Source: Pseudogymnoascus verrucosus
Taxonomy: Eukaryota
Length of the DNA: 64,000 nt
Assembly: GCA_001662655.1 (NCBI GenBank)
Contig: KV460231.1
Direction: 5' to 3' (one strand)
Numbering within the stretch: the first letter of the stretch is position 1; every line of letters starts with the position of its first letter. Under the pieces are notes generated by a model. It saw nothing but the letters and a program-made list of their open reading frames with translations, was not told the DNA's origin and did not search any database. Both the position numbers and the translations under genes were made by a program. Below, piece by piece: positions 1 to 56,065 of this stretch.

Positions 1-1407
1 CCGTTGAGAACGGCGCCGCCCTTGGGCACGACGCGATCAAATGGGCTGCCGACAGTAGGGTGCATCCGCATCGCTTCTTTGATACAGGCTTGTCTGCAGA
101 AGTCAGTCGCGTCAACCAACCCGAAAGGGGACGTACAGGTAAGGGAGCTTCTGCCCCTCTTGAAATGACAGAACGTCCGATAGGAGACCCTTCGCATCCG
201 CATCCTGAAGCTCCTGTACGAGCGTTACGTATGTGCGTGGAGTCTTGACAAGGTAGTAGAAGATGGCGCGGAGGGCAGTGGAATTGGTATCAACGGCTCC
301 AATACTACAAAGTTAGCGCACACTGGTATAATGGCGAACCACTCACAAGAAGATTAGAATATTGTTCATAATTTCCCTCTCGTCCATGATCGTGCTGTCC
401 TTGAGTTGCTTCTGACGCAGGTACTCAAGGAGGTCGCCGCGCATGTTCGTCGGCTTTTCAAGGTCGTACTTCTTCATTGCAGCATACGCAGTCTGTTCCG
501 TTAGCAAACGATACACCCCTCGAAGGCATGCATACCTGTTGAATCATGTTGATCGGGTTCTTCTCCCAGATCCTATCGAGAATTCCGACGAGGGTTGGAT
601 TGCCGAATAGATATTTATGGGCTGCAGGGAACTGTCCAACTATAGCTCCATAGGTCATGGTAGCCCATCCCGCCCCGATCGCGCCGTTGATATCCCGAGC
701 TTGGTCCATGAAACCGAACATCTCTTGGAATGAGAGGAGACCAGTCAAGTCGAACGAAAACCTAAACGTATCAGTATTAACTCAATAGGAAACCAACGTA
801 CTGACCAGCTCAACCATTCTCCAAAGTCAATTGCGGTCCCTGCGCGTTTGTCCATGTGGGCAACGAAGAGGGGGATACATTTATCAAACAGCGGCTCCAG
901 CTGAAGCATGGATGACAACGAGTACTTGGCCGCGACTGACGACCTCATGATCTTGTGTTGGGCGGCATCACGGCTTGTGAATATATTCTCCATCGACTGC
1001 CCGTCGATTGTGAACGTGAAGCCAGTAATATAACTCGACTGCATCTTGTTAGGTCTCGTCGTTGCAATAGAGTTGGAGCATACCTTCTGATACAAACTCC
1101 CTTGAAGGTAGACTTCAGGAATCATCGCCGCATCTCCGATGGAGACAGCATTGGGTCCAGTCCGGATGATAGGTCCATACTTGTCGTGGAGCTTCTGGTA
1201 TTCGATATGCGAGTCTCCCTTCAGGCTTATATACACCTTGTACAGGCGTGTGAAGCGGGCCAGGAAGGGGCCGGGGAGTTGACGCAGGTGAGGACGGAAA
1301 TATGAGAATAGGCAGCTAACAGAATAGCAAACGGTAATAAAAACGAAGATAACGATATAGAGTTGGGCCGCCCTGAGGCCTATGATCTCCTGGACCGTAG
1401 ACAGCAT
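1..1407 (-). CDS. Cytochrome P450 monooxygenase (multi-exon, 3' end beyond the window)
   Basis: N-terminal TM anchor, then LPGP and 'LHDKYGPIIRTGPN'. I-helix 'IFFIGAVDTNSTALR' near 265-305. K-helix ExxR in 'CIKEAMRMHPTVGSPFDRVVPKGG' near 15-90. The heme Cys motif lies outside the window. Confidence 0.93.
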
Positions 1408-3148
1408 GTTGAAATGTATGAAAGTAATGATATAAATTCAGCTGGATAAACAAATAGTACAGTATAGACCTGATTCTAATGTAAAGCCCGACACACCACC
1501 CTTTATATATTCAGCTGAAAACGAGGGGCAGACTCCAACGAGTGAAGGGGCAAACCAATTGTCATCTTTTGTCTTATCCGGCAAAAGGCAATATACCATA
1601 GTTCCAGCTCTGAAGGACGGTGTGATATTCAGCCAGGACTCACTTCATCCCATCAAGCCCAGCAGCAAAACCCAAGTTCGTCATTGGCTACCAGTCGCCA
1701 CTTCAGTCCGTTCAATAAAATACACGTCGTCACACACAAACATCCTCATCTCGCCCAGTCTGCCATCAAACAGATCCAATAACATCTCCTCCCATCCTCT
1801 CAACTTCAGAGACACGTCACACAGCACCTATCTGGGCGACCCGTCGTGGCATATGCGCCGTGCACTGCACCATCCCCCGCCTGGGAATCCGGACAACAGA
1901 AGAAAGAAAAGCACCTGTAACTCTCCAACCGCATTGTAGCATCGTAACTAGGAAACAACCTTCTTCCCCTCCCGGCAATCCATAACGTCTCATCCAGAAC
2001 ATACACACGCACCCCAAACGCCACCGTCGCAGCGCTAGGACGCCCCGCCTCGTGACAAAGACCAACACCCCACCGGCGTGCAGAGATCGTCCGATCTCTC
2101 TCGTCGATCCGACTCGGTCCATCAGTCTCAGTCGGACCACCATCACGCCGACTGCCCTGCCTTCATCCTGACTCTGCCTCAGCACCTCACCGTCCTTTCT
2201 CGCCCCAAAACAATAAAATAAAGACACGAGGCATCACACAGCGCCCGCAGACCGCCTCCCATCTGTCGCACAGAGTGCATCCCAAGCATTCCACCACCAC
2301 CACGGAGGGGATGGAATGGCCCGACCCCGTTCCACCCGAACCAATACCACGGCCACTGGGTGACGTGTGACCTAACCTCCATCCAAGCGAAGGATCAATC
2401 CATCCCAATAGAGCAATCCCCTCGTCGCATTCCCCCTCTTGCCATGTCAAGCTGAGAGGCGTTCGCGGCCTGGAAGTAAGGGGGTCGATAAATGCGCACT
2501 TCGAGCATAGGCAGCTTACATAAGCGAGGGCCGACCCAGCTTCCAATTCGCTGCCGCCGTGGCGGGTTCGGTGATACTGCTGTTTCTGCGTGATTCTAAA
2601 CGAGGGTAGGTAAACGCGAGGAAGCTGATGCGGTGAGAGAGGGGATAATAGATCATGTCGGTCGATGGCAGGGGGGGTTCGATGGTGTTGCACAGCTGGG
2701 CGATGGCGCTGGGCGTGTCTATCGGAGATAAAATCGATGTTGCGTAACGGAATAGGCAAAGGGGAGGGATTCATTCATTTCCACCCCCCTTCTTGTCACC
2801 GATATCGTGTTATTGGGATCAGCCATGGGACGTTACATACATGTTGTGAACAGTGAGTGTCTCTGGTATGCGGACCTGGCGCAGTTCATATTCCGTCCGT
2901 TTCTACCCGCCGCACCGCTGTCGGTGGTAGTGATGCTAAATTCTCTTCGTGCTGGATTTCTTGACCTCGGCCTCCCCTAAAATGATCTATCCTTCTTCAA
3001 ACGCCCGCACTCCAAACCGCCATTCCAACGCCATACCCTCCCAAAAATCAACCCCCCTCGATGCACGGACTGCCGCTTCCATGTGCGTGCCTCATTCCAC
3101 CCTGTCCATTCAACATGCTCATTCCATAGCCATTGTTGACCCCTCGCA

Positions 3149-4216
3149 TTACTCCCCCTTCTTCCGCCTCCCCTTCTTCTTCGGCTTCTCGTCCGAATCG
3201 CTGTTATCCTCCTCCTCCTTCGTCCGCTTACCCTGTCCTGCGTCAGGACCGTCGGCGATCTTACTCACGATATCGTTAAGGAAATCGAATTGCTCATCAG
3301 CCTCGATCGCTTTCTTGAGGTGTACGGCGGTCACGCGCTTCGAGTTCGTGCTGCGCGCCAGAGAGGCTGATTTGGTGACGAGGGAGATCATGAAGAGTTC
3401 CAATGCTTTAGCTGGTGGGGTGTTAGTCACTTGTATTTCATCGGTGGGGGTAGTGGAGCACGTACAAACTGCAACCGGTGTGACCTGGGCCACCTTGCCC
3501 ACCTCCTCATCAGCCTGCATTATCCGCTTTATCCTCGCAACAGGAAACTTCGTCTTGATCTCAATACCCTGGCTGGCTCCAAGGTGCGGTTTGACATCCT
3601 CGCTGATGCCAGGTGCGGCGGCGACGCGCTCACGCTTCACGCGTCCTGTCATCGCGTCGTCGCTGGTCTCGGATTTGATGTGAAGTTGTTCGTGTAGTTG
3701 CTGGTGCGGCGCCTGCGGTTGCTGCAGTGGCTGCGGCGGCGGTGGTTGATAAGTAAGAGCTTGTTGGGGGAGTGAATATGACTGCCGCGAGTAATTCTGC
3801 GGCGGCGAGTGCGCTTGTGAATATGGCACTGTCGGAGCCTGGTACGCCGGGCTGGTGTACTGCCCTTGCCCTCTCGGTGACTGAAACGTATGTGTAGGCG
3901 GTAGGTCTGGGATGGGCGGCAGGTAACTGGAATTCCGGCGGCTGTCTCCAAAGCCCTGGTACTGCTGCGGCGAGGGGGGAACCTGGTAGCCTGAGCTGGA
4001 CGAGATGCTGCTGCGCTGGGCCGTGGCGTTGTTGCTCTGGGGGCTCGTGAAGTCCGGCAGTCGCGGTGAGCGGGGCGTGTAGGTAGAGGTCTGGGGTTCG
4101 TGGTGGTGCTGTTGCTGTTGTTGGTGCGGACGGTGCTGCTGCACGGGCGTCGTTGTCGAGGATTGAAAGGATGAGAGATCGGGAGATTGCGGTGCGTAGG
4201 TACCGTCGGCCGGCAT
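3149..4216 (-). CDS. BUR6: NC2 alpha subunit (Bur6/DRAP1 histone-fold protein) with a long Q/P/S-rich N-terminus
   Basis: 'KTKFPVARIKRIMQADEEVGKVAQVTPVAV(S)KALELFMISLV...HLKKAIEADEQFDFL' histone fold. One in-frame intron of about 54 nt (GTACGT...CTAAC...CAG, ~3413-3466). Start taken at MPADG (4216). Confidence 0.88.
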   Translation of the reverse strand: MPADGTYAPQSPDLSSFQSSTTTPVQQHRPHQQQQQHHHEPQTSTYTPRSPRLPDFTSPQSNNATAQRSSISSSSGYQVPPSPQQYQGFGDSRRNSSYLPPIPDLPPTHTFQSPRGQGQYTSPAYQAPTVPYSQAHSPPQNYSRQSYSLPQQALTYQPPPPQPLQQPQAPHQQLHEQLHIKSETSDDAMTGRVKRERVAAAPGISEDVKPHLGASQGIEIKTKFPVARIKRIMQADEEVGKVAQVTPVAVCTCSTTPTDEIQVTNTPPAKALELFMISLVTKSASLARSTNSKRVTAVHLKKAIEADEQFDFLNDIVSKIADGPDAGQGKRTKEEEDNSDSDEKPKKKGRRKKGE

Positions 4217-6204
4217 ATTGGGGGAAGGAGAAGAGAGCGAAGCAAAGGCGGCAGGGCAGGCAGTCAGGCCCGAACCCGCAAAAAGTGAGAAAGAACGCGT
4301 CCGTGGGTGGTGCGGAGTGGAGATGCGGGTGGCTGGTGCGCAGGAGCTAATGCAGCTCAAAGTTGCTGTGGCTGACGCGGGTAGGGTATATTGGGTTTGT
4401 TTGATTGTGTGGAAGAGCAGATGATGTCCAGTACGTTCGTTCAGTTCAGTACAGTAACAGCAATCGTACTGGCTGACTGGGGGTTGGCAAAATGATTTTG
4501 CTCAATCGCGGTTGCCCTCAGCGTCTCGACATGCCAATTGAGGCCGTCGCGGTTGTGCTGGGTCTCAAAGTGTCTTGTCTGACGATACCCGCTCTCTGTG
4601 CGCGCCGACGTCAATAAAAATGTCCGTGTGGCGCCTGAGAAACTCGAAAAACAAGAATAAAATTAAAATAGAGTTAAAAAGCGGCACAACTGTCTCCAAA
4701 TTCACTCCTTTCTCTCAGGCGGTGTGTAAATTGAGAATTGGTGATTGGTGATTGGTGGGTAAATATAATGCACGTGATTGGTTGTTGATTGAGGTGATGA
4801 TTTTGATGTTCTTTGATGTAGTATTGGTATTAGCGTGGTATTGGTGTGGCTGTGCACGCTTGCCGGCGGGTGGATTTTCCGATTTTCCGGTTTTTCCCAG
4901 AGATTTTTTTGTGATTTGGGTTGATTTGGAGCGGGGAGGGTGCTGCATTATTATATGCTAGGGACGTCCGACGCGACCATCGACCGGGATCCTGCGCTTT
5001 AGGCTACTTTGGGTTAAACGCCGATTCAACTACCCACGAACGTCACCATCTTATTTTTACAAGGGGAGAGGCTAATTTCATCCCCATTCATCTATCAACA
5101 ATCATCATTCACAGAAACCATATCATACCCAATTTTATATCCCGACAATGGCGTCATCATCAAAGTATCTCTCTCTATTGCATCGTTGTTAAGTTGCCTT
5201 TGTCGGTTTCTATATCTTGTACTGTGTACTACTGTCACCAAAACAAAGAACCTCGCGACGCGATCTGCGCCGCCGAACGCGCGTTTGTTTGCCCTTACTT
5301 CCCGCGTCAGCAAGGCTGCCACTGTCGCTGTCGCTATCCGCCTGCATCAATATAGGTATCTGCGATGATTCCCACCCATCTCTTTCTGTGTTTCACATTC
5401 CATGTCTCATCCTGGTCCCGTTGAGTGATGATGACAAAGAGCCTACCAGAGACCACCTGAGTCCGAAGCCCGACGTTGCGTTTGCGGTTTCTGCTCTACA
5501 TCGTGGTCGCGTGAAGGAGTAACTTGATCTAATCTGACAACATCTTCGCCCCTATCGAAAGTATCGAGAATATTCCGGGGTCTTTTCCATCCATACTCTT
5601 TTCATTTGTTGTTGATGTCAGCTTCATGAGCTTGACGCGACAAATGTGTGAGACCTTCTTTATCAAAATCACCTCAGCCCAACGGTTAGGATACTAAATT
5701 TATTCCATGGCATGAAACCGTTCTGGAGTATATATTGCTTGCACTGCGACTGTCTACAATTGACACAGACATATCATGACAATGCCTACCTTGAGCACAA
5801 CTGTGAGTACCCAAAAAGGATGGCCGTTCAAGACAGCATCCAGGCGCATTTCTTCTCTCAAATTGGAGTAAATCAGCCTAACCTGACTGCTCGTTTTCTT
5901 TATCATTTTCAATATCTCATCTCTGCCGCTACACATGCCAGTCTGTTATGGAACCGCACATACTTTTCTATTCTCCTCTATTCGAGACTATCAACGTCGA
6001 AACCAAACACTCTCAGCCAAAGGAATAAAGAAAGGTTTGCTATCTGCTAGGCATGTATATGAGCACCACGATCCTGTCCCTCAGATATCAACGAAGTCTC
6101 CGTCCCAGAGCACATCCACATATTCCCTCAAGTCATACTCCCTCAACGCCTTTCTACATTCCCCTTCCGTCCAGCATCGGTAATACGCCACCGGAGACCT
6201 CAAG

Positions 6205-7119
6205 ATGGAAACCGAACAGCCAGGAAGCGAAGAGCTTAATTTCTTTCACAAAGACAATGTCCGGTTCAAGACTTTGGACAGCATCAGAGAATCCATCTCG
6301 GAACTGTACGTCTCCATCAAAGACAACTACGTGGGTTCAAACAACGCCACAACCTCCGAGACTCCCCTCTGGATCATCGCCAGATCATCAGGGAAGAACT
6401 AGTCTGCAATGAGGCTGAAGCCGACAAGGCGGAAGCGCTTGTCTCCCGTCTTTATTCTGAGATGCTACTGATCTGCGATAGCGTGGAGGCTGAGAGCGAT
6501 AGCGAGAAGGCCCCAAGCGAGGTCGAGGAGGAGGAGGAGGAGATGGTGGACGAGGTGAACAATCAGGAAATGGAAGTTCTCGGTTCATATGACATGCAGG
6601 AAAATGCGGGGAGACACTCTACGGAATATCTACGGAATATGGGCGGAAGTGGTCGGTTCCTATGACATGCGGAAAGATATGAAGGAATATTCTGAGAAAT
6701 GGTCGGAGGTGTTGTGGATTATCGAGAGGATCTTCGGAGTTTTCGCGGCGAAATCAGACCAGCTTCGGGAGTTCTTGAATGGGATGGAGACGGTGAGATC
6801 GGCATTGATTGAGGAATTGGTGGACGGAACGCAGGGGGGAACAGACCTCTTCCATGAGATTCTAGCCGAGAGATTGCAGAAGTTTGGAATAGAGGAGATT
6901 GAAGATGTGCTGGACAAGTTCGTGGCGTCGAAGGCGTACGAGGCGGAGGAGGTGGAGAAGACGCGAAAAGAGTCGGAGGGATCAAAGGTGCTTGATATAG
7001 CGCGGGACGAGATCAGGGAAGTGTTTGAAGCATTGAAGAACGAGTTGGAGGAATTGAAGAAGGAGTCGGAGGAATTGAGGGACGAGTTGGACGTGTTGAA
7101 GAGAGGTGAGGGGCATTGA
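6205..7119 (+). pseudogene. Acidic coiled-coil hypothetical protein, apparently frame-disrupted
   Basis: Coding-like E/K-rich sequence is split over three ORFs (6205-6402, 6462-6665, 6589-7119). The motif EV(L/V)GSYDM recurs in two different frames. Confidence 0.45.
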
Positions 7120-47800: not shown

Positions 47801-48814
47801 GCCCTTTCCGTAACCCGCCGCGCATCGGGCCGTGATGCAGAGGCCTGCCTTGGTGATCTCCGCTTCGGCGACAAGCGCGACGTCCTCGTCCAGCTCGTCA
47901 TCACCCCTGACGCCGCGTCACCTGACCACTCTCCATCCGACCCATGGGAGACGATAATGTCGAACCTCGAGGCGCTCTCCGGGCCGCTCGAGGACGCATC
48001 CCCGCGCGCCCTCTCTGTCGAGGAGGTCCCGCTCATCCAAGCCGACCTCACGTGGGGTGATCTATTACGTCCCAACACCACCACACACCTCCCCCGCCCT
48101 TCATTACTGGCAATCACCATGCTACCTCCATCGAAGAAATCGGCATCACCACCGACCCCACCCATCCCGCCTCACCCCTCTGTCGTCCAGCGCCGCATGG
48201 AGCTCCTCACAGCAGACATGCTCACCCGCGCCCTCTCCCTCGTCGCCCGCGCCCAGCACGATCGCGCCGCTCACCTCCTCACCGAGACGCGCTCTATCCT
48301 CAAGGGCCTCGCCAAGGGTGGCCTTCCACCCATTCCGCCGCCACCTCCTACCGGCGCACTGCCCCTCCTCCCATTACCGGGACAGGGCAGGAGTAGCAGG
48401 ATCCAGGAAGGGAAGTCCTCTCCGCCTTCCCTGTCGCCGACTGCATCCATCGCGCACCTCCCACCGATGCAACCACCGCCCTCGGCAGCTCTGCCAACCC
48501 CGCGCGAACGCGATCAAAGCGTCGGTCCTGCGACGGCGGCGGGTATTGACCCAGCTGTCGTGGCGGCGCTTGATGCGGAGCTGGAGGGTAGTCTGGAGTG
48601 GATCCATCACCCTGCTGTGTTTGGACGGGATAGCCGCAAGGCGGTCCTGCAGGCTGTGGGTGTGATTGGCAGCCAGCGCGCGTGGACTACGCGGAGCGCG
48701 GTGGAGTCTATGTGGGCGAGAAGGGTGGGGGGTGTGAGGAGGGGGTTGCAGGCTTGTAGGAATTGGGGGGATGGAGGGGGGGAGGGGTTGGAGGGGGTTA
48801 GGGAGGAGAGTTGA
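44850..48814 (+). CDS. FAR1: RING-H2 / PH-like / vWA scaffold protein (Far1/Ste5 family)
   Basis: 'CAVCEEPL...CGHVSHGAC...CPTC' RING-H2, 'WQELECYLFSEMLICVKEK' PH-like region, 'DIVVVVPVSSSMQG' vWA. Predicted introns 45076-45278, 45678-45740, ~46459-46509 and ~47524-47574. Confidence 0.85.
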
Positions 48815-49616
48815 GAGGGCGGTTTTTTTTGGGGTGTGTGCGAGTTGTTTGATTGTGGGGAGTTGGGAGTCAAGGGAGGAGATGGAGCATGGGCAATGCG
48901 GATGAGGGTCAGATGAATTTATTTGGATATGGATATGGAGGATGAATTGGGATGCGATGCGATGAACGGATTTTTTTGGAAAAGCCCTGTACGAGACGCG
49001 AGACGCGAGTGGATCTTTGGAGGGAATGGAATGGATCGATTGGATTGAAGCGGGGTTGGGAGAGGTATGGCACGAGGGAAGACGATTGAATTCTCATCAC
49101 CCCCGTTCCCTCACGCACGCCAGTTGTTTGGTTTTAGTTGGCCGACGGGAGGGAGGCATACACGGATATCCCCCATCTGGCGAGCGCTTTTTGTTCACTC
49201 GGCACGTCGACATATCGAGTTCTGTTTCTGCTGCTTTTTTTATTTCTGATATTTTTTGTTGATCTTGGCGATCTAATCTATATCTGAGCGAGCGAGCAAG
49301 TCGATCAAAGCAGAGCAGGCAGGATGGATGTGCGGGATAGGGATAGGGATGGGGATAGGATGGGATGGGGTGAGATGAGGTTGGATGTGGGATGGGGGGC
49401 TTTTTTGGTTGCTTTAGAGAGAGAGAGTGGGAAAGAAAGAAGGAAAGAAGGAAAGGAACACTTACAGTAGTTTAGCTTATACTATACCCCCCTTTTTTTG
49501 GTTTCTTGAGCGGGAATTCGTTTTAGCAAATGCTCAATTTTTGGTCTTGGGTTTTTTGCTTGCTTGCATGACTTTTGGTGTTGTTTTTGATTCTGATTTT
49601 TTGTGGCTATGTTGTA

Positions 49617-50128
49617 ACGTCTGTTCCTGAGTGGCGAAAAAACCGCCGTGCCGAAAAAAATGATAGGTACTTTCACTTTGGGCATCTCAAATTCTACGCG
49701 TTTATTAATATCTCTTTACATTTTTCCATTAATGGTATTCTACAGCTACTCCTGAGCCCCCTAGACTGCTCCTTCAAGAAAATTATGTTTGCATTGCCAC
49801 CCTCACGCCTGATTTATAAAGGGTCTGCTTTTATTACAAAACAGACTTCCTCTACCACAGCTCTACCATTGACCTCTTATTATTTCCAGAACATATAGAG
49901 GGATTGTAGCTGAGCTCTATTGTCCCACAATCAAGCGGGAGATCGTCAGCAGCCTTGTAGTAGCAGTGCGGGGGAAATTCATGTATGGTTGCCATGGAAA
50001 TCAATACTTCAAGTCAAAGCCTCTAACGATTGTTTTGGTTGGTGTCTAATGACCCCCACATTGTATGAAGTAGGCTCGCTTATGTCATCATGTGCAAGGC
50101 TGTGTGGCTGTTTTTTTTACCCACGTGA
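49617..50128 (+). repeat. Left terminal inverted repeat (~510 bp)
   Basis: Reverse complement of 53309-53815. The outer ~79 bp differ at about 6 positions and the inner part is more diverged. Confidence 0.92.
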
Positions 50129-50231
50129 TAAGTCGCTTCATAGGAGAACAAGGTTACCGTAGAGACCTGCAACACATTCTGCAAGGACATAGGGGTTCCT
50201 GTCTGTACGCCTCCACAAACCGTCCCATTTC

Positions 50232-51942
50232 CTAGCTGCAAACCAACAACTCTTCATCATTAGTCACAGCACTGTTGCTTTTCGTTCTCCACGCCTTTTG
50301 CACCCGGATACCCTGCTCGAGTCTTTCTTTTGCCCCGCCGTCCTCGCTCTGCAGCTCGTATCCCCTGGAACCCACTCCCAGCTTGCTTGCCAACTTTGAA
50401 TTCCTTGCTTGGGCCCATCCTTGATTCTGAGTGTTCTTGCATTCGTTGTTGCTACTTGGGAACACCGAGGGAAAGAACCTAACAAACAGAGGCCGAAGAC
50501 ACATCAGGCTGGCACAGATAACTGCCACATAATCTTCGAGCACACTCCATAAAATCATATCAACGGCGTTGTCTATTGAACGGGTTAGCATTCTTGGCTA
50601 ATTCGCTTCACGAATGAATGTAGCTTACATGATACATCAACAGAATTGCTATAGGCGACGAGACATTTGACTCGGATCATACTGGTGATACATGCGCTAT
50701 AATACCAACATTAGCAAAAGCGCGACGATAGGCGCGGGATGAGTGAACTTACAAAGATCCAAGAGAAAACAGAAATATCAGAGCGACCTTCTTCTTGAAG
50801 TTCAAACTCAAGTCCTTCAGCTCCCAGATAGGGAGCAACATAATGACAAAGTCCTCGAAAATGCTGAACCCAGCAACCGTATAGGCGAACACCTCAGAGT
50901 TAGCGCACTTTCCATGTATTGAGTGATCCCAGACCGATTTGACAGGCAAGCATTGAAATGCTACGACTATCACAAACGCGAAAGTCTGGCCAACCATCCA
51001 TGCTGTCGATATCTTTACAACAAGGCGGAATTTCTGGCTAGGAAAAACGCGGAGGAAGAGCAAGAGGATGGAAATTTTCGCTAGGGCTTGTACGACAAAG
51101 TATAATATCTGCGAGATGTAATAGAGCTATTCCAGTCAGTAAGTGTTGGCAAAGGAGAATGCCCTCGGGATGGTACCTTTCCGAGCATCTCTAAATTTTG
51201 AGGTGGGACGTCCCAGAAGTGTTCCCCGAGGCCGCGTGTAGCATCTAAAACACGTCAGTCTCCTAGTATAGCGAGTGTCGTATCAACGAGGCTCTTACTC
51301 AATATCGGAATGATTGTCATCGGAATCATGAGGATCTGTTTGGAATTGTCAATAGCTGTACTACCAAGGCTACGCTGTGATGGAGACTCACAGCTGCAAA
51401 TACAATAGCCCAATCATCCCACCACAACTTGCTCGTTACAAGAGCCCGCGAATAAAACCTCAGCCCGACTATCACGAAGGTAAAGGCTGAGATAATGATA
51501 ACATCTCGTATAATTTCGGCGCTTCGTGATTGTTTCGGGACATCCTTGCAAATTTCAGTTTGAAGGAGGGTCGTAGATTCTGTGTCAATGTTAGGTTCGA
51601 AGCTCAGCAGCTAGCAAATATGCCTGTGGAAGATCAAGAGAACATACTGAATTGGTCGGCGACGCCGCATGAGCCTACTATGCAGAGAGCAAATGTTGAC
51701 TGTAAGGTGGTATTTGTGCAGAGACAGTTTGCTAGGTCTGTCAATGGGCATTGTGCTGGCACCAGCACTTTGACGCCGCATTCTTGCTATAGAGCGCGTA
51801 AATTAACAATTGCCGAGACACAAATCAGGCTGGGACTTACAGTGCATGCGGGGATCTGAGCAAGGACTGATGCAGGATTAGTCTGTGCGAGAACACCAGC
51901 GACTAGAACGGCAACAGGCGCAAATAAATTAAGAACGCGCAT
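50232..51942 (-). CDS. CFEM-domain Pth11-like integral membrane receptor (rhodopsin-like GPCR)
   Basis: Signal peptide, CFEM ('IPACT|QECG...CPLTDLANCLCTN...CIVGSC'), 'LRFYSR...WWDDW', 'GLGEHFWD', 'AKISILLLFLRVF', 'FQCLPV', 'ICASL'. Seven introns that all splice in frame. Confidence 0.92.
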
Positions 51943-52169
51943 GGTGCAATAGATAATGTGATGCTTTAGAGAGATAGGGACAAGCATTCTTTATATAATT
52001 CCCACGTCCATGCCTTTTCTGCAAAGTTGACCGTGGGCACACTTATTAGTAGTGGTACGGGCAGGACCTGAAGCGCTACGAATAATTTAGTACTATGGTA
52101 GGAGGCGTAAGTAATGTGAGAAGTGGCTGCACAGACAGGACTACAACAGGAATAGACACGTGCCGCTTT

Positions 52170-52553
52170 GGTTAGAACTAGGTGGTTTCAACTATTTGGA
52201 CCGAAGTGAACGGCATCGAGACGCACTGTTGCGGACTAAATAACAGCGTATTTTCAAGAAAAATCAAATATAATTAACTGCAGGAGTATATATAAGCATT
52301 ATGGGAAGTAGGTAGGCGTTTAGTCCGCTTTAATAGCTCAACTATGAACCAAGATAGCTATTGTTCTGTTAGTATAAATGGATTACTCGCAAAATATTAA
52401 AGCAGCAGCAAGTTTGTGTTAGCCTGTGCAGGTCCCACTCACATTACTTATGCGCCCTACCATAGTAGGGACACACGGAGGCTAGGTTAGAACTAGGCGG
52501 TTTCAACTATTTGGACCGAAGTGAACGGCATCGAGACGCACTGTTGCGGACTA
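52170..52553 (+). repeat. 69-bp direct repeat (52170-52238 and 52485-52553)
   Basis: GGTTAGAACTAGG(T/C)GGTTTCAACTATTTGGACCGAAGTGAACGGCATCGAGACGCACTGTTGCGGACTA; one mismatch between copies. Confidence 0.95.
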
Positions 52554-53308
52554 CTGCGGGCCATTAGCGGCACGGTCCCTCCAAGACATGCGATGTGCCG
52601 CTCTTGGTGGTGGGATTGTGGCAGAAAAGGGTGGGGAAGGGTGTTAGGGAATTGATGGCCCCATTTTTTGTCCTGTAGCGCCACGTGTGCATGGGCGCGA
52701 TAGGGGGGAACTGAAGGATTAAGGGCAAAGATAGACATATTAGTGAAAACAGTGGATATTCAGATTCTCGAAATTCTCGAAATCTCTCGAAAAGGTCTTT
52801 TGGGCCGAGCTGTGTGCTCTACTCTAAGCGGTTGTTAGCTCTAGTTACCCGTCTCTGGGGAACTCGACTATTACCCCTCTCTAAAACAAAATGTGCTACC
52901 CCTTTTATGCGCAATTAGTCGAGTTGGGTGTCGCGTGTTATCGGTGGGTGGTGGAGTACAGTACAGCGCCATAAGTATTCATACGGGTCTGTGCTTAAAT
53001 TGCAGTAAACGAGTTGTCGTTTTGTATGGGAAAGGTCTGTGCTTTTTTCGCATTCAATGCCTCGTAGGGTATAGGCAGTAATTGAGGGAAAAGCACAGAC
53101 CTTTTCCATGGAAAAGGTCTGTGAGAAAGGTCTGTGCACAAATTGCAGTAAACGAGAGTCCTTTGAGAGCCAAGAGAATCATTGAGATCCAGGTGTGAAA
53201 CTCCTTCATGGCGTAAAGCTTTCACGTGATGCGGCCGCTCGAATGCATGATTCCTCATGCATTCAACCGCTGCTGCCTTAGTGTGCCCCATATCACGCCT
53301 AAGGTCTG

Positions 53309-53815
53309 TCACGTGGGTAAAAACCACGCAGCCTTGCCACACAATGACATAAGCGAGCTAACATTGTGAGACGTGGGGGTCAGGTTACACTAACCGAAAC
53401 CACTGGTCGCTTTGACTTCAGGTATTAATTTCCATAGCAACTATACGTACATGAATTTGCCCCGCACTTCCACCACATGGCTGATGACGATCTCCCGTTT
53501 AGCTGTGAGGGTTTAAGAGCTCGGGACAATCCCTTCATATGTTCTAGGAATTGTAAGAGCTCAATGGTGGAGCTATGGTGGGGGAAGTCTGTTTCGCAAC
53601 AAATGCCTACCCTCTGCAAATCAGGCGCGACAGTGGCAACGCAAACATAATTTTCCTAGCGGAGCGGTCTGGGGTGCTTAGGAGTAGCTATAGAATACGA
53701 TTTATGCAGTAATGTAAGAGATATTGATAAGTGTGCAGAATTTGAGATGCCCAAAGTCAAAGTACCTCTTATTTTTTTTGGCACGGTGGTTTTTTCGCCA
53801 CTCAGGGACAGACGT
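53309..53815 (-). repeat. Right terminal inverted repeat (~510 bp)
   Basis: Inverted copy of 49617-50128, ending in GACAGACGT followed by TA. Confidence 0.92.
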
Positions 53816-54705
53816 TAATGGGGTTTGTGTTGTATTGTAGCGCGGTGGTGGTGATGGTGATGATGATGCTTTTCGAGATTATGGGTTCGGGATGGATGGA
53901 AGAGATAGGGTGGAAGGAAGATTAGGGGGTGGTGTTGTTTATATTTAAATATCTGATTGTTGGGGACGAGCGGGAGAAGATGGTATAAGAAATAATGAGC
54001 TGAGAGATGGGGAGGTTTAGATTTCTATCAACTTTTTATACCAAATCTACGCACGTATCGTACGCATTCTTGAGTTTCTCAATGAGGGCCATTTTTTAAA
54101 TTTCCTACTTCAGCACGTATGGTCTTAAGTAGTTGCCGCGTGTGGTTTGAAAGGGCGGCGCATGTGGTCTTAAGCAGGCAGCCAGTGAGTCCAAGTTTTA
54201 AAAAGGGTAGCGCATGCGGCTTTAAATTATCAACCTAGGGATATTCCCTTTAGCTTAGTTGCTCATGGTGAGAGAAAGAGATGGAGCGGTACAAGAGAGG
54301 GGCGCAAAAGCAAGGAACCGCTCAAGACCGCACTCGCCGCCCCCAGCGCACCGTCACTATTTCTCGTCACTACGGGCCCTTCTGACCACCAACCCCCCCC
54401 CCCCTTTTCTCACCACACACCTCTTCTCACCACCCCCTTTCGAAAGCTGTAGCGTGCGCGGTCTCCGAAAACAGCTCGGGCTTCTCGAAACAACCACCGG
54501 TCGATGATCTAGCAATTTTTATATGTTATTGTCCTCGTAGGGGCACTTGTCATACTTGTCGTGTAGATGGAACTTGCATGGTCATGAACTATGCCTGCTT
54601 TCTGATTTACTGCTGTGTGTATTCTAAAACATAAATGAATAATCTAATAGATAGATATCATCTCGCCCATCCATCTCAAGGCATCGACACCCAACCCACC
54701 CCATA

Positions 54706-56065
54706 TCACAACTTCGACCCCGACCCCACCGCCACCCCCACCGCAGCAGCCAACCCATACACCTCCCTCTCAAACAACTGCTGCATCTCATGACTCTTAA
54801 AATCCCCAAACGGAAGCACATTCCCCGCATAAAACGCACTCACCCCACTCCCCCTATCAATCGTCCACAGCAGATTCGGGAGTCCGCTCCAGGTCATCGT
54901 TCCCGCCTTCAGCCCGGTTTCATCATCACTCAGCACCAGCAGGCCGCCGAGTCCGAAGTTAAGCTTTGTTGACGACTTGCGGCTCGTGAAGGTTTTGGTC
55001 TCGGCGAGTGCGGCGTTGTAGAGGGTTAATGCGCGCTGCCCGCTGGGGGCGAGTTGGGGGGTGAACATCTCGTCGATTGTGGCGGGTTTTAAGAGGACGC
55101 TGGTGGAGGAGGCGCAGAGGGAGGTGAGGATCTTGAGGAAGTCTGTTGCGGAGCCGATTGCGCCGCCGCCGCCGTATTCGTGGGCGCAGGGGTCTTCGTA
55201 CAGTATGTCGTTTGTCCATTCCACCTTCTCCCCGCTGGTGGAGGGTTTACTCCATACCTTCTTCTTTGCGCCGCGTTTCGTCATGGTGACGAGTCGCTGG
55301 CGCACTTCGGGCTTCAACTCCTGGTGGAAGGTAATGTTCTTTATGCCTAGAGGATCCCAGATGTGGGATTGCATGTAAGCTTCCAGCGAGGTGCCGGTGA
55401 GCCGCATGACCAGCACGCCAGCCCAGTCGAGCCCGGTGCCGTATTCCCAGGATGTGCCGGGCTCGAAGAGGAGGGGGGAGGTGATGCGGTGGAGGAGGGG
55501 GGTGTTGGCGGTGCGGGTTGGGGGGAGGGTGCTGAAGAAGCGGGATAGGAGGGGGTTCATGCCGAAGTAGCCGAGGCCGGAGGTGTGGGTTAGGAGGTGG
55601 CTGGAGGAGGTGTTAGTCTGGGTGGGAATTGTTGGAGTGTGGAGGTGTACCGGAGGGTTATTTTGTTCTTGGCGATGGTGAGAAGAGGTTCATTTGTCTC
55701 TTCGTTGAAGCCGGTGAGGATCTGGATACCCTTTAATTCTGTCAAGATTGTTGAGACGTCGTCGTCTAATCTGATCTCCCCCCGCTCAACGCACTGCATG
55801 GCCGCGATGGTGGTCATGAGTTTTGTGCATGATGCCAGGATGAAAGTCGCGTTGATATCTATCTTCTCCCCTGGAGATTTCAGCCCAAAGGCTTTTTCAT
55901 ATTTGAATTTCCCTATTGTCGGAGGTCAGTTAGTTTAGTTTGGGTTTCAGGCATGTGAATTGGGTTCTCATTTCACGAACCTGCTTTGTCGCTGGCTAGC
56001 AGGACGACACCGGGGAGATCGCCCGCGTCGCAGGCTTGCTGGAATTGTTGGTCTAGGGATGGCAT
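54706..56065 (-). CDS. Beta-lactamase-family serine hydrolase (LovD/EstB-like) with C-terminal SKL
   Basis: SxxK in 'LASCTKLMTT', 'HLLTHTSG', 'PLLFEPGTSWEYG', 'TWSGLPNLLW'. Two introns. Ends GSKL*. Confidence 0.92.

Follow-up and report, generated by a model that had tools for sequence, protein, structure and literature searches.

The 64-kb stretch of Pseudogymnoascus verrucosus DNA analysed here (contig KV460231.1; in the following called the window) contains a unit of 4,199 bp at positions 49617-53815, in which a complete gene for a predicted Pth11-like receptor is enclosed by two inverted arms of about 0.5 kb. An earlier note on this DNA had described the unit as a gene-carrying DNA transposon of the Pack type with ~510-bp terminal inverted repeats (TIRs). 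The features of the unit are the following:

49617-53815 (4,199 bp): whole unit, two inverted arms and the enclosed gene
49615-49616: left TA, a putative target-site duplication; the homology between the two ends stops here
49617-50128, plus strand, outer to inner end: left arm; homology to other family members continues to ~50174
50232-51942, minus strand: CFEM and Fung_rhodopsin (Pth11-like) gene, from a manual model, Pfam and a protein match
51943-53308, minus strand: upstream region of the gene within the unit, with nested repeats
52091-52467: nested insert resembling a miniature inverted-repeat transposable element (MITE), with 44-nt inverted ends; boundaries read by eye
52957-53156: small hairpin-rich repeat with inverted pairs, multi-copy in all four genomes compared
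53309-53815, minus strand, outer to inner end: right arm; homology to other family members stops at 53309
53816-53817: right TA; a contig of genome X4 that bridges the empty site resumes at 53816

The left arm comprises 512 bp and the right arm 507 bp. A repeat finder and BLAST aligned them in inverted orientation with 407 of 518 positions identical and 17 gap columns (E 5e-121), which corresponds to a mutual identity of ~79%; no further copy of either arm was found by BLAST within the 64-kb window. Both arms open with ACGTCTGT(T/C)CCTGAGTGGCGAAAAAACC, and their homology ceases at the flanking TA. The two arms are most alike at their outer ends, with 45 of 50 and 44 of 50 identical positions in the outer 100 bp (89/100), compared to 35 of 50 near the inner ends. 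Polarised on two arm copies from outside the unit, private changes are present at 55 of 410 sites of the left arm and at 37 of 392 sites of the right arm; the 55 changes of the left arm include 23 of the C>T or G>A type and 21 transversions. Repeat-induced point mutation was considered as the source of the divergence and rejected, as the two arms differ by 61 transitions versus 33 transversions and show no CpA bias. Judged from these substitutions, the divergence of the arms is ordinary and old. The outer flanks are poor in C and rich in G and T on the plus strand (C fraction 0.11-0.12 in the left flank, 0.04-0.12 in the right flank and 0.27 in the window). Inspection of the junctions by eye for direct repeats of 3, 4 and 8 bp gave no match, and TTAA and TWA target models failed to fit both sides. 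A palindromic 4-bp duplication of ACGT, with TAACGTTA as the junction of the empty site, may be considered as an alternative to a TA duplication.

The enclosed gene is encoded on the minus strand (51942-50232) by eight exons (51942-51841, 51786-51648, 51579-51392, 51335-51299, 51244-51177, 51126-50753, 50696-50629 and 50572-50232) that are separated by seven GT..AG introns and code for 438 amino acids. The exon model was built by hand and then compared with an annotated protein of equal length, P0001 of Pseudogymnoascus sp. VKM F-103, to which the deduced sequence is 99.1% identical over 438 of 438 residues; the next-nearest named proteins follow at 87% (F-4520) and then at ~81%. Pfam assigned a CFEM domain to exon 2 (E 2e-6, 28.2 bits at a cut-off of 22) and a Fung_rhodopsin domain (PF20684) to exon 6 (E 8e-38); exons 3 and 8 match the latter more weakly. 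The precomputed domains of P0001 are PF05730 and PF20684. A CFEM domain at the N-terminus and a seven-helix Fung_rhodopsin domain behind it make up the order that fits a Pth11-like CFEM receptor, and on the basis of its predicted product the cargo is an intact gene of this kind. About 3.1 kb of host-type DNA lie between the arms and comprise the gene including its introns, an upstream stretch of 1.37 kb and ~58 bp past the stop codon. Since the introns and the upstream DNA were kept, the cargo is DNA-level. Transposase families were represented by none of the 11 open reading frames (ORFs) inside the element and by none of the 73 ORFs of at least 150 amino acids in the window. In a gene tree, which is a quick tree only (21 rows, with two fused models shortened to residues 1-460), the gene of the window and that of F-103 form a pair (support 100) within a clade that includes F-4520 and F-3808 (support 95). 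This placement in a Pseudogymnoascus clade indicates an origin of the gene within the genus and does not inform on the direction of its movement.

These results agree with several statements of the earlier note. The ends at 49617 and 53815 with a TA outside of both were verified, and the homology stops at the TA; the gene model, Pfam and the 11 ORFs bear out an intact seven-intron CFEM/Pth11-like gene that is accompanied by its upstream region and by no transposase; the proposed uptake at the DNA level agrees with the seven introns and the upstream DNA, and the G/T-rich flanks are evident from their composition. Its ~510-bp TIRs are upheld as inverted homology and abandoned as native TIRs, because each arm is a separately truncated copy of one and the same end, with 21% divergence between the two (see below). 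The phylogeny of the cargo gene, which the note had proposed as a check, places the origin of the gene and leaves the direction of movement aside.

For a comparison with relatives, positions 48600-54800 were used as a query against assembled contigs of public runs, and the contigs of four genomes (X1 to X4) were aligned at 80% likeness; X5 to X10, which contribute small shares, were not part of the comparison. The element is carried by X1, which is probably the genome of the window itself, and by X2, which bears another organism label, and is absent from X3 and X4; the site is thus occupied in one and empty in two of the three other genomes compared. In X2 the element is present at the same locus with contigs spanning both junctions, and its interior differs from the window by ~1% or less (25 of 2,444, 2 of 320, 3 of 488 and 3 of 657 letters). 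The two non-carriers each provide one contig that bridges the flanks without the element, which is the empty site that was expected if the unit is mobile. A single contig of 46,167 bp in X3 matches 48600-49324 at record positions 5026-5752 and 53876-54384 at 6117-6643; the gap between both matches amounts to 364 record bases, where the window has 352 bases of flank and the 4,199 bp of the element. Likewise, a single contig of X4 matches 48600-49205 at record positions 689-1298 and resumes exactly at 53816 at position 1742, with a gap of 443 bases where the window has 411 bases of flank. In X2, X3 and X4 the flanks are ~97-99% identical to the window. At this locus the whole segment therefore either occurs or is missing as a unit, and a breakpoint coincides with the terminus of an arm (right side, X4). 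Because the X4 contig resumes at 53816, a TA exists in the empty allele.

Compared to the window, X2 has 10 differences in 725 positions to the left of the element and 1 in 1,012 positions to the right (53789-54800), and the non-carrier X3 has 9 in 725 positions of the left flank. These counts suggest that the flanks have different histories, with a recombination boundary at or near the element. The cargo gene is a single-copy gene in X1 and X2, over which the depth is flat in both genomes except for two short bins. X3 and X4 contain homologues with ~85% nucleotide identity on other contigs, and this match also covers part of the upstream region, from 52493 onward.

The arms are not confined to this locus. 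The summed contig depth over 53361-53774 is 805-1023 in X1, versus 176-207 for single-copy DNA, and is elevated in all four runs; two more contigs of X1 extend across 53817 before they diverge. In a metagenome scan the exact 28-nt terminus was recovered from two contigs, L001 and L002, of which L002 has a full arm with 87% identity to the right arm over 513 columns. In all four fully seen termini (left and right end of the unit, L001 and L002) a TA is directly followed by ACGTCTGT, and the outer flanks are unrelated. The arms are accordingly members of a repeat family that is dispersed, low in copy number and constant in its terminus. The other copies that the earlier note had anticipated were hence found in all four genomes and in two metagenome contigs, and no autonomous transposase partner was found with them. 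In an alignment the left arm is homologous to L001 and L002 up to ~50174 and the right arm only to 53309. From these differing limits it follows that the arms represent the same end of a longer unit, truncated at ~558 bp on one side and at 507 bp on the other.

The arm of L001 has an internal duplication or insert of 255 bp (~1283-1538), the junction of which also reads TA followed by ACGT. L001 and L002 are homologous to each other until 1.2 kb past the arm, and both contigs have a 2EXR/F-box-like ORF after the arm (L001 2082-2867, plus strand; L002 4480-5271, minus strand). This ORF has 114 database relatives, with 81% identity in P. destructans and 50-68% in Lecanoromycetes, Dothideomycetes and Xylariales, and its conservation across classes is unusually even. 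A DUF3435 gene of the Starship captain type with broken reading frames (Pfam E 1e-29 to 7e-61) is located at 1068-3155 (plus strand) of L002, 2.4 kb inward of the arm, and a ferric reductase gene and an F-box gene are found near the arm copy of L001 (4458-5955, minus strand). The gene content of the two contigs hints at a location of the arm family in or near Starship-like regions. Apart from the DUF3435 recombinase gene of L002 there was no transposase among the scanned ORFs of both contigs. The one-ended copies were also considered as Helitrons; this was rejected because the 5' end is not TC and because neither a CTRR end nor a hairpin is present at the boundary of homology between L001 and L002.

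Sclerotinia and Pseudogymnoascus are members of the same class. In Sclerotinia, Fot1-like families of the Tc1/mariner group generate TA duplications and have 36-70-bp TIRs that start with ACGT (PMC4188875), and Fot1-like Tc1/mariner families of Verticillium equally have TIRs starting with ACGT and TA duplications (PMC3441728). The signature of ACGT and TA that the earlier note had assigned to Fot1-like elements, with TIRs that are usually far shorter, is thus documented, and it is present at all four termini. ACGT termini with flanking TA connect the unit to Fot1-type elements (Mariner-n_SS, DAHLIAE1/2, Fot1, Flipper) and to their MITEs, and non-autonomous derivatives of Fot1-like elements can be moved in trans (PMC4188875, PMC3441728). 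Unlike Fot1-type elements, in which short TIRs surround one transposase ORF in 1.8-2.3 kb, the unit has 4,199 bp and carries a complete host-type gene, the receptor gene only, and no transposase. Host-derived DNA between inverted ends with flanking TA, without an internal transposase and with an empty site in relatives, is what the unit has in common with Pack-MULE or Pack-type elements and with fungal transduplication. Pack elements are, however, usually multi-copy and carry gene fragments, whereas this unit is single-copy and carries a whole gene. In fungi, class II elements are known to capture genes, as hAT elements did with histone H3 in Pseudocercospora and Pyrenophora (PMC6710886). There the captured gene stems from an intron-less transcript and is present in tens or hundreds of copies (PMC6710886), in contrast to the seven introns and upstream DNA of the present unit, which occurs once per genome. 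ToxhAT (14.3 kb, with ToxA) resembles the unit in that it is bounded by TIRs, contains a complete functional gene, is itself a transposon composite and has a patchy distribution among relatives (PMC6737239). ToxhAT has 74-bp TIRs of ~92% identity, no target-site duplication and eight genes including transposases, and resides in a transposon-rich island (PMC6737239); the unit differs by its 0.5-kb arms with 79% identity, a TA on both sides, one gene and a position among ordinary genes.

Inverted element ends can mobilise the DNA between them, as is the case for composite transposons of bacteria (Tn5/Tn10) and for macrotransposition by paired Ac/Ds ends in maize. The unit resembles composites of the Tn5/Tn10 type in having two inverted copies of one end, and differs from them in that the copies are short truncated ends and not whole elements. 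Within the reach of the literature search, no composite of this sort is on record for Fot1-like elements of fungi. We propose that 49617-53815 is a non-autonomous composite cut-and-paste DNA transposon that most likely moved as one piece, and assign a probability of roughly 0.6 to this reading. A composite fits better than a native Pack element with long TIRs because one end is present twice, because the two copies are truncated at different points and because L001 and L002 have no inverted partner within 5.2-5.5 kb; the Pack-type transposon of the earlier note is therefore retained as a non-autonomous, gene-carrying unit and replaced as regards its native long TIRs. The composite was probably formed at a donor locus, either from two family copies on either side of the gene or through a duplicated single end, and would have moved to the present locus later. 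A transposase encoded elsewhere, most likely of the Fot1-like (Tc1/mariner) type, would bind the outer ~100 bp of each arm, where conservation is best, cut at the ACGT termini and move the whole unit into a TA, which is duplicated in this process. The enzyme, the TA duplication and the place where the composite was formed are the parts of this model that we infer. Given that the arms are 21% diverged and the flanks of carriers and non-carriers only 1-4%, the presence/absence difference is younger than the arm pair. Either the composite pre-dated its arrival at the locus or it was built from two copies that had already diverged.

Several observations weigh against this proposal. Both arms derive from one end of the family unit, are differently truncated and are in this respect unlike native TIRs; with 507-512 bp they are about ten times as long as the 36-70-bp TIRs of Fot1-like elements (PMC4188875). 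The two-ended form of the arm family was seen only in the unit of the window, and no inverted partner arm was detected within 5.2-5.5 kb of the arms of L001 and L002, where a repeat finder, exact motifs and a short-word BLAST returned nothing above chance. A DDE_1 or HTH_Tnp_Tc5 transposase was found neither in the element nor in the window nor among the scanned ORFs of L001 and L002. The cargo is single-copy at one known site without a second one, and a parent copy of at least 80% nucleotide identity, as expected for Pack-type capture, was absent from the carrier genomes. The left junction of the empty site falls into a low-complexity, partly masked stretch, and the contigs are 12 bp (X3) and 32 bp (X4) longer than expected; from the letters at hand, a single TA, an excision footprint and a 4-bp duplication of ACGT appear indistinguishable there. 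Both an insertion in the carrier lineage and an excision in the non-carrier lineage are possible. Either event would nevertheless mean that the unit is mobile.

An explanation that dispenses with a transposase is less probable and deserves some weight. The 4.2 kb could be ancestral and have been deleted in the lineage of X3 and X4, or the difference could have arisen by recombination or introgression, and the arms would then be old, passive repeats. Pseudogymnoascus lineages do exchange short genome fragments (Leushkin et al., PMC4438637), the unequal flank differences of X2 suggest a recombination boundary near the element, and the empty alleles have 12 and 32 surplus bases. On the other hand, the right breakpoint of X4 coincides with the first base outside the arm, and recombination between inverted repeats inverts the enclosed DNA and does not delete it. 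Introgression passes alleles on and leaves unexplained why the breakpoints fall on TA/ACGT termini that are common to dispersed copies. Hardly probable is an independent insertion of two members of the arm family in opposite orientation around a resident gene. The divergence of 21% between the arms, their truncation at different points and the one-ended state of L001 and L002, the only other copies seen in full, are what such insertions would produce. A resident gene should remain when the arms are missing, yet in X3 and X4 the flanks are joined with the gene gone together with both arms, and this joint absence disfavours the idea. No relative was seen in which the gene occupies this site without the arms, the case in which the earlier note would have accepted two insertions. 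The idea also requires that three events coincided, or that a single deletion had its limits precisely at the two outer termini.

Ferric reductase genes are frequent accessories of Starships. One was found near the arm of L001, and together with the captain-type DUF3435 gene 2.4 kb inward of the arm of L002 it raises the question of whether a tyrosine recombinase of the Starship or Crypton type, or another superfamily, mobilised the unit, with TA/ACGT as the target of that system. The direct repeats of Starships are short (2-6 bp), and TIRs are present only sometimes (PMC11162782), and a palindromic duplication of ACGT would be compatible with such a system. We nonetheless regard it as very unlikely. 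A DUF3435 gene, by which a Starship would be recognised, is absent from the 64-kb window, and the reading frames of the recombinase gene in L002 are broken. Furthermore, the homology between L001 and L002 ends before the recombinase gene, so that arm and recombinase need not belong together; transposable elements are known to nest in Starships (PMC13004909), and ACGT with TA is the documented signature of Fot1-like elements (PMC4188875, PMC3441728). The weight that is left over by the composite transposon and these three alternatives is reserved for some other explanation. A wider claim, that the unit is a still-mobile composite of the Fot1 type that shuttles a complete sensor gene between loci and Pseudogymnoascus lineages, perhaps riding on Starships, appears improbable to us as it stands; the ride on Starships is suggested by the arm copies beside the captain-type recombinase gene of L002 and the ferric reductase gene of L001.

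The upstream region of the cargo gene contains further repeats. The 377-bp insert at 52091-52467 is flanked by TA on both sides, starts and ends with CTATGGTAGG...CCTACCATAG and has 44-nt inverted ends that are 82% complementary. By its structure it resembles a further, unrelated MITE with flanking TA that is nested upstream of the gene. A direct repeat of 84 nt with 90% identity is located at 52155-52238 inside this insert and at 52470-52553 just outside of it. The hairpin-rich repeat at 52957-53156 contains the motif GGTCTGTGC several times and a palindrome at 53094-53123. Its depth was 495.8 in X1 (versus 176-207), 214.5 in X2 (versus ~50), 71.6 in X3 and 37.3 in X4, which is two to four times the single-copy depth in the four Pseudogymnoascus genomes, and loose contig ends were noticed at 52957 and 52996. 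The sole match in Rfam was mir-4679 for the hairpin at 53015-53120; it reached 30.2 bits, compared to a threshold of 88 bits, and was taken as chance. The neighbourhood of the unit is gene-dense and includes genes for a CTP synthase, an adenylosuccinate lyase, a velvet factor, a PH/VWA protein, a protein of the beta-lactamase family, a cellobiose dehydrogenase and AA9 proteins. The named matches of the beta-lactamase-family gene have 66-86% identity, with a partial match of 99% (32% coverage) in 24MN13, and VKM F-103 is not among the matches listed; as a control for the distance between strains this gene is weak.

Small DNA transposons are well known to move genes in plants, where gene fragments are involved, and in bacteria with their composite transposons. 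To our knowledge, movement of whole genes by transposons in fungi is documented in few cases, among them hAT transduplication, ToxhAT and the giant Starships. A literature search of limited reach returned no description of a Fot1-type composite that carries a whole intron-bearing gene, nor did it return a study on transposons in Pseudogymnoascus; PMC4438637 has 0 occurrences of the word stem 'transpos'.

The solid result of the present analysis is a whole-gene insertion polymorphism between near-identical genomes. Pth11-like sensors constitute a large family, and the unit represents a simple and testable route by which members of this family may be gained or lost between close lineages. As the genus includes the pathogen of bat white-nose disease, differences in gene content between its lineages are of interest in themselves. 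If the unit should indeed be a composite that shuttles between loci and lineages, small cut-and-paste transposons would share in the traffic of whole genes that has so far been credited mainly to giant elements in fungi.

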